Virus record (IMG/VR): IMGVR_UViG_2778261252_000011
Source of the DNA: a virus
Lineage: Duplodnaviria > Heunggongvirae > Uroviricota > Caudoviricetes
Length of the DNA stretch: 42,392 bases
Reading direction: 5' to 3' (one strand)
Shown: one piece after another, positions 19,317 through 25,335 of the stretch
Position numbering within the stretch: position 1 is the stretch's first letter
How the letters are laid out: every line of letters begins with the position of its first letter
The notes under the pieces: model-generated
The model's database searches: none
Told to the model about the DNA's origin: nothing
The model's input: only the letters and a program-made list of their open reading frames with translations
Made by a program: the position numbers and the translations under genes

Positions 19317-19453
19317 AATCTTAACTACAATATGATTCATTTTGATGATTGTTTCATAAGGAACAGTGAAGTAAGATCTAAGAGGAGTTAAATTTTATAC
19401 AGTATAATCATAATATTGCAGCAAGGTGGTTATAATTGAAAGAATATTTAGAT

Positions 19454-20911
19454 ATGAATACATCTCATGTAAGAGTTGTTACTCATATGTGTGGGTTCCT
19501 GGTTTGGCTCTATAGTCTTTCAATGTTGCCACCAATGGTTGTAGCATTGTTTTATAAAGAAAAAAGCCTGTTCGTTTTCTTTATAACTTTCGTTATATTT
19601 TTTTGTATTGGTGGCGGAGCGTGGTATACAACTAAGAAATCTGGCATTCAATTACGTACCCGTGATGGGTTTATTATAATTGTAATGTTTTGGATTTTGT
19701 TTTCTGTTATTAGTGCATTCCCTTTATGGATTGACTCAGAACTTAATTTAACGTTCATTGATGCTCTGTTTGAAGGGGTTTCTGGAATAACAACAACAGG
19801 AGCAACTGTAATTGATGATGTTAGTTCATTACCTCGGGCATATTTGTACTATCGGTCACAGTTAAATTTTATAGGTGGTTTAGGAGTTATTGTTCTGGCG
19901 GTTGCTGTATTGCCATTATTGGGTATTGGTGGTGCAAAGCTTTATCAGTCAGAAATGCCGGGGCCATTTAAGGATGACAAACTCACTCCCCGCCTGGCCG
20001 ATACGTCACGGACACTGTGGATAACTTATTCTTTATTAGGTATTGCTTGTATTGTCTGTTATAGACTTGCAGGAATGCCTTTGTTTGATGCTATTTGTCA
20101 CGGGATTTCCACAGTTTCGCTTGGTGGTTTCTCAACTCATAGCGAGAGTATCGGATATTTTAATAACTATTTGGTTGAGCTGGTGGCTGGTTCTTTTTCC
20201 CTGCTATCGGCTTTCAACTTCACTCTTTGGTATATTGTTATTAGCAGGAAAACGATAAAACCTTTAATCAGAGATATTGAACTTCGTTTCTTTCTGTTAA
20301 TAGCCTTAGTGGTGATCATTGTTACCTCTTTCCAGGTCTGGCATATAGGTATGTATGACTTGCATGGAAGTTTTATTCATTCGTTTTTTCTTGCCAGCTC
20401 CATGCTCACTGATAATGGTTTAGCTACGCAGGATTATGCAAGCTGGCCCACGCACACGATAGTGTTTTTGCTGTTGTCAAGTTTCTTTGGGGGATGTATA
20501 GGTTCAACTTGTGGTGGAATTAAGTCACTTCGATTTCTTATACTTTTCAAACAAAGCAAACACGAGATAAATCAGCTTTCTCATCCCAGAGCGTTGTTGA
20601 GTGTAAATGTAGGAGGGAAGATAGTTACAGATCGTGTAATGAGGTCTGTATGGAGTTTCTTTTTTCTTTATACTCTCTTCACGGTGTTTTTTATACTGGT
20701 GTTAAATGGTATGGGATATGATTTTCTTACATCATTTGCAACAGTGGCTGCATGTATTAATAATATGGGATTAGGTTTTGGGGCTACTGCATCGTCATTC
20801 GGAGTGCTTAATGACATTGCAAAATATTTAATGTGCATAGCTATGATTCTTGGTCGCCTTGAAATTTATCCTGTTATTATATTGTTTTCAGGTTTTTTTT
20901 GGCGCTCCTAA
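19454..20911 (+). CDS. trkG: TrkG potassium uptake protein (485 aa)
   Basis: Translation MNTSHVRVVTHMCGFLVWLYSL... matches TrkG; polytopic membrane protein; markedly AT-rich codon usage relative to the neighbours. Confidence 0.9.
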   Translation: MNTSHVRVVTHMCGFLVWLYSLSMLPPMVVALFYKEKSLFVFFITFVIFFCIGGGAWYTTKKSGIQLRTRDGFIIIVMFWILFSVISAFPLWIDSELNLTFIDALFEGVSGITTTGATVIDDVSSLPRAYLYYRSQLNFIGGLGVIVLAVAVLPLLGIGGAKLYQSEMPGPFKDDKLTPRLADTSRTLWITYSLLGIACIVCYRLAGMPLFDAICHGISTVSLGGFSTHSESIGYFNNYLVELVAGSFSLLSAFNFTLWYIVISRKTIKPLIRDIELRFFLLIALVVIIVTSFQVWHIGMYDLHGSFIHSFFLASSMLTDNGLATQDYASWPTHTIVFLLLSSFFGGCIGSTCGGIKSLRFLILFKQSKHEINQLSHPRALLSVNVGGKIVTDRVMRSVWSFFFLYTLFTVFFILVLNGMGYDFLTSFATVAACINNMGLGFGATASSFGVLNDIAKYLMCIAMILGRLEIYPVIILFSGFFWRS

Positions 20912-21048: not shown

Positions 21049-21843
21049 ATGAGCGAGAAATTAAAGATAGTCTATCGCCCATTACAAGAATTGTCACCGT
21101 ATGCGCACAATGCCAGGACGCACAGTACTGAGCAGGTGGCACAACTGGTAGAAAGTATTAAGCAATTCGGCTGGACTAATCCGGTGCTGATTGACGAAAA
21201 GGGCGAAATTATTGCGGGTCACGGTCGTGTTATGGCGGCTGAAATGCTCAAAATGGATTCTGTTCCGGTCATTGTTCTGTCTGGCCTGACGGATGAGCAG
21301 AAAAAGGCGTACCGCCTGGCAGATAATCGCCTGCCGATGAATGCTGGCTGGGATGAAGATCTGTTGCGGATGGAGCTGTCGGACCTAATCAATGCTGATT
21401 TTGATGTCTCCCTGACAGGCTTCATCCCGACAGAAATTGATGAACTGTTGACGGATGTTTTGCCCGGTACAGGAAATGAGGAGGAGCCGTATACGACGAA
21501 AATTGATACGCCTGTTTATGAGCCGTCGGGCGGTAAACCGGATATCAGTGAACTGTACGACGATACGAAAACTCAGGAGCTGATCAGCCGGATACGTTCG
21601 GCGTCCCTTGATCCTGATATTGAGAAATTCCTCCTGTGTGCGGCAGAACGTCACACAGTGTTTAATTTCAGCAGAATTGCGGACTATTACGCTCATGCCC
21701 CCGCTGAAATTCAGTGCCTTTTCGAGGAGTCGGCGCTGGTGATCATTGATTATCAGCAGGCTATTGAAAATGGATTTGTCCGAATGACGCAGCGCATGGT
21801 GGAGATCATGCATGGCGGGGAGGAGGAGGAGGAATATGCGTGA
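21049..21843 (+). CDS. ParB-like nuclease domain protein (264 aa)
   Basis: N-terminal ParB/Srx-like region around IAGHGRVMAA; acidic C-terminal tail. Confidence 0.7.
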   Translation: MSEKLKIVYRPLQELSPYAHNARTHSTEQVAQLVESIKQFGWTNPVLIDEKGEIIAGHGRVMAAEMLKMDSVPVIVLSGLTDEQKKAYRLADNRLPMNAGWDEDLLRMELSDLINADFDVSLTGFIPTEIDELLTDVLPGTGNEEEPYTTKIDTPVYEPSGGKPDISELYDDTKTQELISRIRSASLDPDIEKFLLCAAERHTVFNFSRIADYYAHAPAEIQCLFEESALVIIDYQQAIENGFVRMTQRMVEIMHGGEEEEEYA

Positions 21844-22768
21844 TGATTTTTGCGCCTTTATTCTGACTCACGGGCGACCGGACAAAGTTCTGACTTACCG
21901 GACGTTGCGTCGTGCTGGCTATACCGGGAAAATTTTTATCGTTGTTGATGATGAAGATAAGACACGGCATCAGTACATGGCTGAATTTGGTGAACAGGTG
22001 CTGGTATTTTCCAAAGCCGATATTGCCAGTCGTTTTGACGAAGCCGATAATTTTGGTGATCGCCGCTCAATTTTTTACGCCCGTAATGCCTGTTTCGACC
22101 TGGCAAAACTGGTCGGGTGTAAATACTTCATTCAGCTCGATGATGATTATCACGAGTTCCAGTTTCGGGTGGATCGCAACTATGACCAGGCCTATTTCCC
22201 GATAAGGAAACTGGATGCGATCCTTTCTGAAATGCTGGCGTATTACGAATCAATACCCGCGCTTTCCATCGCTATGTCGCAGGGCGGGGATTTTCTTGGT
22301 GACAATGGCGGCCATGCTTCGTGGGTGAAACGCAAGGCAATGAACAGCTTTATCTGTTCGGTTGATCGACCGTTCTCATTCATGGGGCGCATTAACGAGG
22401 ATGTGAATACGTACACGAATCTCGGTCGCTGTGGTGAATTGTTTATGACGATCGGTGCTGTCCAGTTAGGGCAGAAACAGACGCAGAAAAACAGCGGCGG
22501 AATGACCGAGCTGTATCTGGATTCCGGAACCTACGTTAAAAGTTTTTACTCCGTCATGTATTCGCCGTCGTGCGTAAAAATCTCACTGATGGGTGCCAGC
22601 CATAAACGCATTCACCATCAGGTCACCTGGAACAACGCTGCAGTAAAAATCCTTCACGAAAAATACAGGAAGAAGACACCCTGCATATCAATGGGGGTGA
22701 CAAATGATTCCGTATTCGAAAGTCGAGTCTCTGGCAGCGTGCCGGATGACTGCACAACAAATCGCTGA
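21836..22768 (+). CDS. Hypothetical protein (311 aa) with GT-A-like features (DxD-like LDDDYHEF)
   Basis: ATGCGTGA overlap with the ParB-like stop; FILTHGRP...IFIVVDDED and QLDDDYHEF are reminiscent of GT-A glycosyltransferases; unverified. Confidence 0.45.
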   Translation: MRDDFCAFILTHGRPDKVLTYRTLRRAGYTGKIFIVVDDEDKTRHQYMAEFGEQVLVFSKADIASRFDEADNFGDRRSIFYARNACFDLAKLVGCKYFIQLDDDYHEFQFRVDRNYDQAYFPIRKLDAILSEMLAYYESIPALSIAMSQGGDFLGDNGGHASWVKRKAMNSFICSVDRPFSFMGRINEDVNTYTNLGRCGELFMTIGAVQLGQKQTQKNSGGMTELYLDSGTYVKSFYSVMYSPSCVKISLMGASHKRIHHQVTWNNAAVKILHEKYRKKTPCISMGVTNDSVFESRVSGSVPDDCTTNR

Positions 22769-22955
22769 CGTTCTGGATGTTGATCTGAACCGACTGAAAG
22801 AAAATCGGGAAGCAATGACAGATTTTTATGCGGCCATCCGTAAGGGCAGAGCGAAAGGTGAAGCCGAGTTACGAGCGGCATTGTTTAAGCTTGCCAGAAA
22901 AGGGGATGCCTTTGCTCTGCGCGAACTACTCAGGGTGGATAAAAATCAGGACTAA
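22704..22955 (+). CDS. Small HTH-like protein (83 aa; alternative start at 22746)
   Basis: ORF overlapping the 3' end of the previous gene; function unclear. Confidence 0.4.
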   Translation: MIPYSKVESLAACRMTAQQIADVLDVDLNRLKENREAMTDFYAAIRKGRAKGEAELRAALFKLARKGDAFALRELLRVDKNQD

Positions 22956-22958
22956 CTG

Positions 22959-24053
22959 ATGAGCAGACCGGACTGGGGGGCGTTGCAGCAGGAGTATATT
23001 GCTGAATACACCCGCTCCGGTATATCTCCGGTGGCATGGTGTGAAGCAAGGGGACTGAACTACGCAACAGCCCGTCGTTACATCAAAAAAACTCCGAAAA
23101 ATGCGCAGAAAGAAATGCGCAAAACTGCGCAAAAAAGTGCGCGAAAAAAAACTGCGCAGACTGCGCAAAGGCAGAACGGAAAATCTCAGAAAAAAAAGGC
23201 TGTATCCGATGCACTCCTGATTGAGGGGGACACGGAAGAAATTTCGTTCTGCCCCGATGAATTCGGTATTTCTGACCAGCAGGCAAAATTCGCCATGTTG
23301 GTTGCTCAGGGGAAAAAGCCGACAGAGGCATACCGACTGGCTGGTTATGAGGGGCAAGGTGCGACAGCTAACAGCAACGCCAGCCGTATGCTTAGAAATG
23401 CCAGGGTTTATCGTGCTATCAGCTACTTCCGCAATCAGTACCAGAAACGCTATACCGCAGACCTGGATTTACTGGTGAGCCAGTTGATGGCCATTGTCCA
23501 GGCCGACCCCAATCAGTTGGCACAATTTCGCCGTGTTAACTGCCGTTATTGCTGGGGCGAGAATCATCTCTACCAGTGGCGTGATATTGCAGAATTCGAT
23601 AAGGCTGCGGCACAGGCCTCCAGAGATGGTAAACCCGAGCCGGAATATGGAGGCCTCGGCTTTGTTGATAACGCCATACCCAATCCTGATTGCCCGAAGT
23701 GCTGCGGTGAGGGAACAGGACAGCTTTATATGGCTGATACCACACTGCTTGATGGGGATGCGCGGCAATTATATGCAGGGTCAAAGCTCGGAAAATACGG
23801 TGTTGAGATCCTGCTGGAGGATAAGGCTGCCGCCCGGCGTGAATTGTTGCGTTTGCTTTCTGCTGGCGGGGCATTATGTGCAGATAAGCGGCTACAGGAA
23901 CTGGAAATTGAACGGCGCAGAATAGAGAACCAGAAGCTGCGCAAAGAGATCGAAACGGTGGAGGATAATGAACATCCCCAGCCTGTGGCGATCAATATTA
24001 ATGTGGTTGATGCCAGATTAAGGAGTGATGAAGATGATCTCTCCGACGCTTAA
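22959..24053 (+). CDS. Terminase small subunit (364 aa)
   Basis: Segment AKFAMLVAQGKKPTEAYRLAGY typical of terminase small subunits; immediately upstream of the large subunit; contains repeated GCGCA motifs. Confidence 0.7.
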   Translation: MSRPDWGALQQEYIAEYTRSGISPVAWCEARGLNYATARRYIKKTPKNAQKEMRKTAQKSARKKTAQTAQRQNGKSQKKKAVSDALLIEGDTEEISFCPDEFGISDQQAKFAMLVAQGKKPTEAYRLAGYEGQGATANSNASRMLRNARVYRAISYFRNQYQKRYTADLDLLVSQLMAIVQADPNQLAQFRRVNCRYCWGENHLYQWRDIAEFDKAAAQASRDGKPEPEYGGLGFVDNAIPNPDCPKCCGEGTGQLYMADTTLLDGDARQLYAGSKLGKYGVEILLEDKAAARRELLRLLSAGGALCADKRLQELEIERRRIENQKLRKEIETVEDNEHPQPVAININVVDARLRSDEDDLSDA

Positions 24054-25335
24054 TGTGCCTCAGGCGCGATTTCTTTCAATGCCCCATAAATTTAAAGCCT
24101 ATATTGCTGGTTTTGGCTCGGGCAAAACATGGGTTGGGTGTGGCGGCATATGCAAGGGGATTTGGGAGCATCCAGGTATAAATCAGGGATATTTTGCGCC
24201 AACGTATCCCCAAATTCGCGATATTTTTTACCCTACAGTGGAAGAAGTTGCTGCTGACTGGGGATTGAACGTAAAAATTAATGAGGGAAATAAAGAGGTT
24301 CACTTTTATTACGGACGCCAGTATCGGGGAACCACTATCTGCAGATCGATGGAGAAGCCACAAACGATCGTCGGTTTCAAAATTGGTAATGCGCTGGTGG
24401 ATGAACTGGACATTTTGCCGAAGGAAAAAGCCAGAACGGCGTGGCGCAAGATAATTGCGCGTATGCGTTATAAGATTGATGGACTTCGCAACGGTATTGA
24501 CGTTACAACCACGCCGGAAGGATTCAAATTTGTCTACGAGCAGTTTGTTAAAGCCGTGCGTGAAAAAACAGAGCTGGCCTCACTGTATGGTCTGGTGCAG
24601 GCATCTACTTTCGATAATGAAAAGAACCTGCCAGCAGATTACATTCCTTCACTTCTTGAATCATACCCTCCAGAGCTGATTAAAGCCTATCTTCTAGGAC
24701 GGTTTACTAACCTGACAAGTGGTACTGTTTACCATCAGTTTGACCGGAAACTGAATAATTGCGAAGAAGTGGAGCAGCCAGGGGAGCCGATTTATATTGG
24801 GATGGATTTTAACGTTGGAAAGATGGCGGGAATCGTCCATGTGCTGCGTTTGGGGCTTCCATGTGCGGTAACTGAAATCATCAATGCCTACGATACGCCG
24901 GATATGATCCGCCTCATTAAAGAACGCTTCTGGCTGTATGACGGGCATGATTACCGGAAAGTGAGGGAGATTTATATTTATCCAGATGCTTCCGGAGATT
25001 CCAGAAAATCAAGTAACGCAAGTACGACGGATATAGCCCAGCTTAAGCAGGCAGGTTTTAACGTTGTGGTGAACAGCTCGAACCCGCCAGTAAAAGATCG
25101 CGTTAACTCAATGAATGCAATGTTCTGCAATGCCAATGGTGAGCGTCGCTATAAAGTTAATGTGAAGCGTTGTCCGGTATATGCCGAATCTCTGGAGCAA
25201 CAGGTCTGGGATGATAAGGGGGAGCCTGATAAAAAATCTGGCAATGATCACCCGAATGATGCCGGAGGTTATTTCATCGTTAAGCAATTCCCTATTGTCA
25301 AACCGACCGGAAGAGTCACATCACTTCGGATTTAA
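24025..25335 (+). CDS. Terminase large subunit (436 aa)
   Basis: Walker A GFGSGKT near the N-terminus; size and position. Confidence 0.85.
   Translation: MMKMISPTLNVPQARFLSMPHKFKAYIAGFGSGKTWVGCGGICKGIWEHPGINQGYFAPTYPQIRDIFYPTVEEVAADWGLNVKINEGNKEVHFYYGRQYRGTTICRSMEKPQTIVGFKIGNALVDELDILPKEKARTAWRKIIARMRYKIDGLRNGIDVTTTPEGFKFVYEQFVKAVREKTELASLYGLVQASTFDNEKNLPADYIPSLLESYPPELIKAYLLGRFTNLTSGTVYHQFDRKLNNCEEVEQPGEPIYIGMDFNVGKMAGIVHVLRLGLPCAVTEIINAYDTPDMIRLIKERFWLYDGHDYRKVREIYIYPDASGDSRKSSNASTTDIAQLKQAGFNVVVNSSNPPVKDRVNSMNAMFCNANGERRYKVNVKRCPVYAESLEQQVWDDKGEPDKKSGNDHPNDAGGYFIVKQFPIVKPTGRVTSLRI

Follow-up and report, generated by a model that had tools for sequence, protein, structure and literature searches.

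A hexamer array inside the small terminase gene of a Rac-like Escherichia coli prophage as a probable pac recognition site of the P1 type

Few packaging (pac) sites are known at the sequence level, and the small terminase subunit gene (terS) of a viral genome in IMG/VR (IMGVR_UViG_2778261252_000011, Caudoviricetes) raises the question of whether a cluster of short repeats in its 5′ part is one of them. The window, that is, the whole stretch of 42,392 nt that was analyzed, corresponds to an intact E. coli prophage of the Rac-like lambdoid kind, with 95% identity to phage records that include vB_EcoS-666R9. Judging from sequence comparisons, we give a probability of about three in four to the reading that six hexamers at positions 23102-23167 form the recognition part of this prophage's pac site, as a hexamer array of the P1 type.

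An exact search located five copies of TGCGCA, beginning at 23102, 23116, 23126, 23153, and 23162, of which two were flanked as ATGCGCA and three as CTGCGCA, alongside a single GTGCGCG variant (TGCGCG at 23138), giving six copies in total within 66-72 bp of terS (Table 1). The array encodes the peptide KNAQKEMRKTAQKSARKKTAQTAQ, with the copy at 23116 read in another codon phase than the remaining five. Over the window as a whole, TGCGCA was not enriched (20 observed versus 17.9 expected); five copies in 70 bp, however, constitute the most extreme cluster of any hexamer in the window, the runner-up having three. No hexamer reached five copies in 300 dinucleotide-preserving shuffles, where the maximum was four (14 of 300) and TGCGCA itself never exceeded three. 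Chance does not explain the clustering of TGCGCA. A sequence-only reading of this DNA had proposed seven copies of the repeat and an adjoining A8 run as a candidate pac site. The cluster is real and lies inside terS, but the count is six rather than seven, and the only possible seventh copy, a TACGCA with one mismatch at 23061, falls outside the interval that had been proposed. The idea that repeats in terS act as a packaging recognition site gained strong support from the comparisons below, while a packaging start at the array is something that we infer.

Repeats of this kind could also lack any function as DNA and be a mere by-product, either of a repetitive, low-complexity peptide (TAQ/KK) or of slippage during replication in a linker free of constraint. 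The linker in which they are encoded is the most variable and indel-prone part of the TerS protein alignment and tolerates variants that are shifted in frame and then restored; its A-runs and 12-bp periodicity suggest slippage, and single copies do mutate. The peptide alone, however, predicts 0.6 copies against the five observed. Specifically, synonymous recoding of the array peptide with the codon usage of the window yielded 0.59 copies on average, with one of 100,000 trials reaching five or more (P ~1e-5). The best hexamer clusters chosen post hoc in 14 other open reading frames (ORFs) of the window had recoding P values of 0.0014-0.1, the known P1 pac, used as a positive control, had a value of 2.4e-4, and P was ≤3e-5 at all 13 loci tested. 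Moreover, the copies are spread over two or three codon phases, the peptides that they encode differ (NAQ, MRK, LRT, CAE), and homologues with 37-54% protein identity retain five to nine exact copies in up to three phases, although peptide, spacers, and spacing differ. Five exact copies, two of which are shifted in phase, are found in the terS of Serratia fonticola (54% amino acid identity). In three Klebsiella phages (37-39% identity), the left arm holds six copies in three phases, encoding TAQ/PAQ, LRT, and CAE, and Aeromonas phiARM81mr has seven. Finally, the hexamer type switches together with the N-terminal domain of the protein, as detailed below. The recoding tests and the conservation in multiple phases largely refute the by-product explanation, which we regard as very improbable. 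Because of the phase-shifted copy, the recoding test, and the distant homologues, it is the hexamers and not the peptide that are conserved; they are selected as DNA, independent of the reading frame.

Variation within the population was examined in 35 distinct E. coli-type sequences, each of which had between four and six exact copies. Nucleotide diversity was 0.019 in the codons of the N-terminal domain, 0.036 in the hexamers, 0.066 in the spacers of the array, and 0.155-0.176 further downstream.

The domain encoded immediately 5′ of the array is the candidate reader of these hexamers. Pfam had no family for the N-terminal domain of TerS (hereafter, N-domain). An AlphaFold2 model of residues 1-44 consisted of a three-helix bundle (helices 6-20, 24-31, and 35-38; predicted local distance difference test 86-88 over residues 11-40), with low confidence after residue 45, in the linker. 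The third helix of the model is the putative recognition helix, and residue 39 lies in or just after it. Alignment of the N-domain profile to residues 3-42 of P1 PacA with hhalign gave a probability of 89.9% (E 1.7e-6), and PHROG profiles matched across families in both directions, with the window TerS hitting the PacA family at E 2.4e-4 and PacA hitting the TerS family of Shiga toxin (Stx) phages at E 3.3e-5. By these profile comparisons, the TerS N-domain is homologous to the N-terminus of P1 PacA. It is encoded by at least 562 IMG/VR contigs and at least 252 phage records. A profile search of a set of 5.8 billion proteins returned mostly truncated or frameshifted fragments of 44-88 residues, which were used for the structure alignment and not for assessing the breadth of the family.

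P1 pac spans 161 bp within pacA and comprises seven hexamers bearing Dam sites (PMC10028697; also PMC11260489), and synonymous disruption of the hexamers lowers P1 titre approximately 9-fold (PMC10028697). In the annotated P1 genome, we found TGATCA/G hexamers at pacA nt 194-233 and 324-352, right after the N-domain codons, where they flank the annotated cleavage sites (pacA nt 276-285) and a site for integration host factor (IHF). The window and P1 have in common a cluster of hexanucleotides inside the small-subunit gene, located 3′ of the codons for a homologous N-terminal helix-turn-helix (HTH) domain, with the array starting 11 nt after those codons in the window and about 65 nt after them in P1. 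In both, the hexamers are palindromic, occupy several codon phases, are often about 12 bp apart, and are constrained as DNA, at the recoding P values given above. The window array is therefore the counterpart of P1 pac by position and, by way of the homologous N-domain, by evolution as well. The two differ in that the hexamer is TGCGCA rather than TGATCA/G, the rest of the window TerS is a Terminase_2 core and not PacA, and the host element is a lambdoid Rac-like prophage and not a plasmid prophage. On the strength of these comparisons, the element most likely works like P1 pac and shares its recognition domain, as a variant rather than a plain member of that type. Two-armed arrays were seen in some relatives and resemble the layout of the HEX4 and HEX3 arms of P1 pac: three Klebsiella phages (L013, L014, and L016) have arms at terS nt 138-203 and 365-403, with six and three TGCGCA copies and a gap of 152-164 nt, and PHB10 (L015) has three and two copies. 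The gaps in two-armed relatives overall span 152-168 nt.

The hexamer sequence differs among relatives, and does so in step with the N-domain. All 18 distinct N-domains with Arg39 (A-R39-RYIK) were accompanied by TGCGCA, in 3-9 copies, and all eight with Lys39 (A-K39-RYIK) by TGCGAA, in 5-9 copies that occur in both orientations, often as TGCGAATTCGCA. Residue 39 thereby co-varies with position 5 of the hexamer, a rule with zero exceptions in 28 distinct N-domains, which were counted as such and not as independent switches. The R and K types were interleaved across the rest of the N-domain, and near-isogenic pairs (L082/L084 versus L097) were identical at residues 1-35, yet differed in both helix and array. 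In a third type, found in VT2-Sakai and vB_EcoP_phi367 (L103), the helix reads NTARTRIKM and the array has four 12-bp units with (C/T)GATCAT. Taken together, the comparisons indicate that the hexamer sequence follows the N-domain type and not the TerS core. Shiga toxin phage TerS proteins carry the same N-domain family at their N-terminus. In VT2-Sakai (L104, NC_000902), TerS is encoded at 1501-2307 and the array is at approximately 1630-1690; its units and those of phi367 read ATCGATCATGAA / ATTGATCATAAA / ACCGATCATGAA / ATCGATCATGAC, with a Dam GATC site in each, and are closely like the hexamers of P1 pac, while one or two TGCGCA copies are left downstream of the array.

Arrays also accompanied N-domains from outside this family. 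Actinobacillus phage vB_Apl-pPE4 (L108, 1030-2121) has a homologous Terminase_2 core (79% identity) with an unrelated N-domain and six copies of (G)TGGAAA(C), and Erwinia sp. OLFS4 (L011, 564-1481) has yet another N-domain on a homologous Terminase_2 core, with four copies of GGGGCA plus inverted copies. Since the unrelated HTH N-domains of pPE4 and OLFS4 carry arrays of their own, each in the codons of the linker behind the domain, a design in which a domain comes with its own array seems to be general. Pseudomonas phage Skulduggery had neither the N-domain nor the array.

The N-domain and array were found together on several kinds of TerS core. They were on a Terminase_2 core in the window, Serratia, Klebsiella phages, and Yersinia vB_YenM, on the Stx-phage core in GER2, PhiR12_3, and VT2-Sakai (the family of this core, phrog_370, matches the window N-terminus), and on other cores in RothD, phiARM81mr, Providencia PSTCR3, and Pasteurella Pmp11. 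The pair has thus been joined to TerS cores of unrelated kinds (P1 PacA, Terminase_2, and the phrog_370 core of Stx phages) and to unrelated types of TerL. With the array written into the tether's own codons, a binding domain would move together with its site, as one cassette. It appears rather probable from these distributions that this is a widespread, portable, and "self-encoding" cassette for packaging specificity, consisting of a PacA-like HTH and its own array in the tether codons, grafted onto unrelated terminases and following a readable code in which Arg39 pairs with TGCGCA, Lys39 with TGCGAA, and ARTRIK with (C/T)GATCA.

Another explanation is that the array is a short patch of homology at a mosaic junction, promoting the exchange of N-domains between terminase cores. 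The joining of the cassette to at least three unrelated TerS cores fits this explanation, as does Rac-SA53 (L007, KU052037, 2412-3440), in which a deletion produced an annotated gpO-terS fusion, the N-domain is gone, and the junction, where similarity to the window breaks off, coincides with the array start (window ~23111). A homology patch, however, has no need for five to nine exact copies of one hexamer with variable spacers, nor for hexamers that switch whenever a single residue of the neighboring helix does. In addition, population diversity within the gene is lowest in the N-domain and array. We therefore hold it to be very unlikely, and recombination at the array is better seen as a side effect. 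The copies retained in Rac-SA53 read TGCGCA, TGCGCA, TTCGCA, TGCGCT, and TGCCCA, so that two of five are intact and the array is decaying, which counts in favor of the pac reading.

As for the A-runs, the A8 run that had been proposed as part of the site does exist in the sequence; close relatives retain it, in full or shortened, the Klebsiella, Yersinia, and Stx-phage versions lack it, and a part for it in the site is not supported. All that Serratia has is an A7 run some 30 bp past the end of its array. The AAA periodicity of the linker is 11.5-12 bp, a level reached in none of 2000 shuffles, and this period corresponds to four codons and not to the helical repeat, which led us to reject A-tract phasing at 10.5 bp (an intrinsic bend). 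A further A7 run is located at 23085-23091. The A-runs of the linker were frameshift hot spots: terS of ET210 (L004) is annotated as a frameshifted pseudogene, with this A7 run one A short, and several database proteins (P0008, P0016, and L068) pass into another frame between two A-runs and then return. Real variation and sequencing errors are pooled in these frameshift variants.

The palindromic nature of the hexamers also allows that they act in mRNA, as small hairpins that tune terS translation. In the predicted RNA fold of 23085-23205, copy 1 pairs with 2, copy 3 with 4, and copy 5 with 6, and the fold is better than that of shuffles (z -2.98), as are those of the Serratia (-2.4) and Klebsiella (-3.5) arrays. 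Pairing is, however, automatic for any repeated palindrome, and the paired copies are not conserved. Moreover, the arrays of Pmp11 (non-palindromic TGCGAA in one orientation; z +0.59) and VT2-Sakai (GATC type; z -0.65) fold no better than shuffles and keep the same architecture. A role as mRNA hairpins consequently seems most improbable.

Under the pac reading, TerS would be an oligomer built on the Terminase_2 core, each subunit having at its N-terminus a PacA-like HTH (residues 1-44), linked to the core by about 50 residues that form a basic, flexible tether. Several N-domains would bind TGCGCA copies spaced about 12 bp apart, providing specific and multivalent recognition of phage DNA, be it a concatemer or an unexcised prophage. 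TerL (Terminase_6 type) would then be recruited and cut nearby; by analogy with P1, the cut might fall some tens of bp 3′ of the array, at approximately 23200-23260. Headful packaging would proceed rightwards, toward terL and the head genes. Physical binding of TerS to the array and its role in packaging initiation are suggested by the sequence comparisons, and the direction of packaging is likewise what we infer.

A related explanation keeps the binding and changes its purpose: the N-domain could bind the array for autoregulation of terS/terL, as a roadblock inside the ORF, or for some other control of late genes. This, too, would fit the conservation of the hexamers as DNA and their switching together with the N-domain, and the array lies within a transcribed late operon. 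Nevertheless, the homologous cassette of P1 is an experimentally defined pac, TerS proteins are known for recognizing pac or cos, and the cassette always heads a TerS beside terL, in very different phages. Regulation as the function of the array is, in our view, unlikely.

Several observations weigh against reading the array as a P1-type pac. Copies 2, 4, and 6 mutate individually in the population, so that no one copy is essential, and hexamer spacing is not conserved, ranging from 6 to 35 bp with a mode of 12. The codons of the helix lie only about 10-30 bp from the array; linkage and shared descent, rather than many independent switches, may therefore account for part of the perfect association of Arg39 and Lys39 with their hexamers. 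Foldseek searches with the N-domain model returned only matches with E > 1, the best being HTH DNA-binding proteins. With respect to P1 itself, no GATC/Dam site occurs in 23102-23167, and control by Dam methylation is therefore impossible in the window. The window array is single-armed, without a second arm like HEX3, whereas P1 has HEX4 and HEX3 around the cut, and no IHF consensus (≤1 mismatch) was found in 23000-23450, whereas P1 has an IHF site between the arms. BLASTP detected no similarity between the window TerL, which is of the Terminase_6N/6C type, and P1 PacB. Headful packaging is suggested only by the TerL family, that is, by Terminase_6 and its presumed headful relatives. Finally, the literature search turned up no experiment on this phage or on close relatives of it, be it on virion ends, cleavage, or binding.

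Other well-characterized packaging sites offer partial parallels. The pac of SPP1/SF6 (pacL, pacC, and pacR) overlaps the 5′ part of the TerS gene and has repeated boxes and A-tracts that are bound by a ring of G1P HTH domains. The TerS core of the window belongs to the same Pfam family, Terminase_2; it differs in having an extra PacA-like HTH before the Terminase_2 HTH, and its repeats are short, exact hexamers inside the ORF, the sole strong repeat family found. In lambda, the R-sites of cosB are repeated elements beside the cut site and are read by the N-terminal winged HTH of gpNu1 in a multivalent manner. Multivalent recognition by the N-terminal domain of the small subunit is the likeness here; lambda differs in its cos cleavage with fixed cohesive ends, its 16-bp R-sites outside a repeat-coding linker, and its dependence on IHF, and its terminase protein families are unrelated to those of the window. 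For P22, the pac lies inside the terS ORF (gene 3), as the array does in the window, and can be altered at wobble positions with TerS unchanged (PMC11260489). A P22-type pac was rejected for the window, since that site is single, asymmetric, and about 22 bp long, in a GP3-type terS, whereas the window has an array of repeats and a Terminase_2 TerS with a PacA-like N-domain; P22 gp3 belongs to another TerS family. A pac has been defined for P22, SPP1, and P1, and that of ES18 is still unknown (PMC11260489).

No description of TGCGCA/TGCGAA arrays or of PacA-like N-domains in the TerS of lambdoid or Stx phages was found in the full-text literature searched; older subscription literature was outside this search, and the novelty is therefore provisional. 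The vB_EcoS-...R records are prophages reported from clinical E. coli isolates, for which no virion-end data were seen, and a search of the KlebPhaCol paper and its supplement turned up no PhageTerm results. Two further candidates were set aside: the pac of LF82 "Gally", which coverage mapping placed in terS, comes with a TerS of another family, and the end of the vB_EcoP_phi367 record, considered as pac evidence, falls inside terS (nt 787), far from its array.

The gene content of the window includes recT, exonuclease VIII (recE), racC, kil, sieB, a lambda-like O, and DnaC-like replication genes, along with Q, lysis genes, and the trkG moron, and then head and tail genes. TerS was identified by a match to Pfam Terminase_2 (PF03592) at E 1.2e-8 (36.1 bits versus a cut-off of 26.1), and by phrog_51, "terminase small subunit" (E 6e-75). 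Its 5′ part was found in 886 of 5426 complete E. coli genomes. Compared with solved structures, TerS had one weak match, to another small terminase (E 0.13), and TerL had no sequence relative. The terL product is expected to be the nuclease/ATPase that cuts near the array. Its nearest named relatives (44-52% identity) come from Kagunavirus and other Salmonella and E. coli phages, which we take to be headful packagers, and the gene is followed by a portal gene of the DUF4055 family (Pfam).

Directly upstream of terS is an ORF of 83 amino acids (22704-22955, + strand) that matches the middle (145-218 of 319) of phrog_309, also a "terminase small subunit" (E 8e-23), and sequence similar to its C-terminus immediately precedes terS in the Serratia and Erwinia loci, too. 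This ORF could represent either a further small protein for DNA packaging or the leftover of a replaced TerS. Just upstream of the packaging genes are also a protein with a ParB_N domain (21049-21843, + strand) and a TET-associated glycosyltransferase (TAGT; GREB1-related in RefSeq; 21812-22768, + strand), which possibly have a role in DNA modification. The annotation of a close relative contained no TET/JBP or cytosine methyltransferase gene, and the window itself was not searched for one. The potassium-uptake gene trkG, the classic Rac moron (19436-20911, + strand), lies between the lysis genes and this ParB/TAGT/terminase block.

Table 1. Positions in the window of the terminase genes, the encoded TerS regions, the A-runs, and the proposed recognition array, with hexamer states given for 35 distinct E. 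coli-type sequences
Feature	Position	Strand	Details
terS, small terminase subunit, 364 aa	22959..24053	+	ORF; Pfam Terminase_2; phrog_51
Codons of N-terminal PacA-like HTH domain, aa 1-44, MSRPDWGALQQEYIAEYTRSGISPVAWCEARGLNYATARRYIKK	22959..23090	+	
Codons of putative recognition helix YATARRYIKK, aa 35-44, including Arg39	23061..23090	+	
Codons of basic low-complexity linker, ~aa 45-98, from N-domain to Terminase_2 core	23091..23252	+	
Entire hexamer array, the portion of pac that TerS is proposed to bind	23102..23167	no strand	
Hexamer 1, TGCGCA, codons aaT GCG CAg (N-A-Q)	23102..23107		invariant, 35/35
Hexamer 2, TGCGCA, other codon phase aTG CGC Aaa (M-R-K)	23116..23121		exact 26/35; TGTGCA 7/35
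Hexamer 3, TGCGCA (T-A-Q)	23126..23131		exact 34/35
Hexamer 4, degenerate TGCGCG here (S-A-R)	23138..23143		TGCGCA 27/35; TGCGCG 7/35
Second A8 run, in spacer between hexamers 4 and 5	23144..23151	+	
Hexamer 5, TGCGCA (T-A-Q)	23153..23158		exact 33/35
Hexamer 6, TGCGCA (T-A-Q)	23162..23167		exact 23/35; TGCACA 12/35
A8 run of the sequence-only reading	23190..23197	+	23 bp after last hexamer; no conservation across family
Terminase_2 core of TerS (own HTH and oligomerization region)	23322..23906	+	PF03592, aa 122-316
terL, large terminase	24025..25335	+	Pfam Terminase_6N E 3.5e-32; Terminase_6C E 7.8e-11

If the pac reading is true, it would provide a prediction of pac at the sequence level for a very common type of E. 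coli prophage and, by extension, for the TerS of Shiga toxin phages, and it would link the long-isolated pac/PacA system of P1 to the lambdoid phages. The site and its orientation would also tell which neighboring chromosomal genes move by lateral transduction. Packaging could then be engineered or blocked, for example, by synonymous recoding of the hexamers, as in P1, or by R39K swaps. If the cassette is likewise true, the pac sites of hundreds of prophages of E. coli, Klebsiella, Yersinia, and Pasteurellaceae, Shiga toxin phages among them, would become predictable, and perhaps reprogrammable. More broadly, it would mean that a TerS can gain specificity via an add-on domain that brings its own site.

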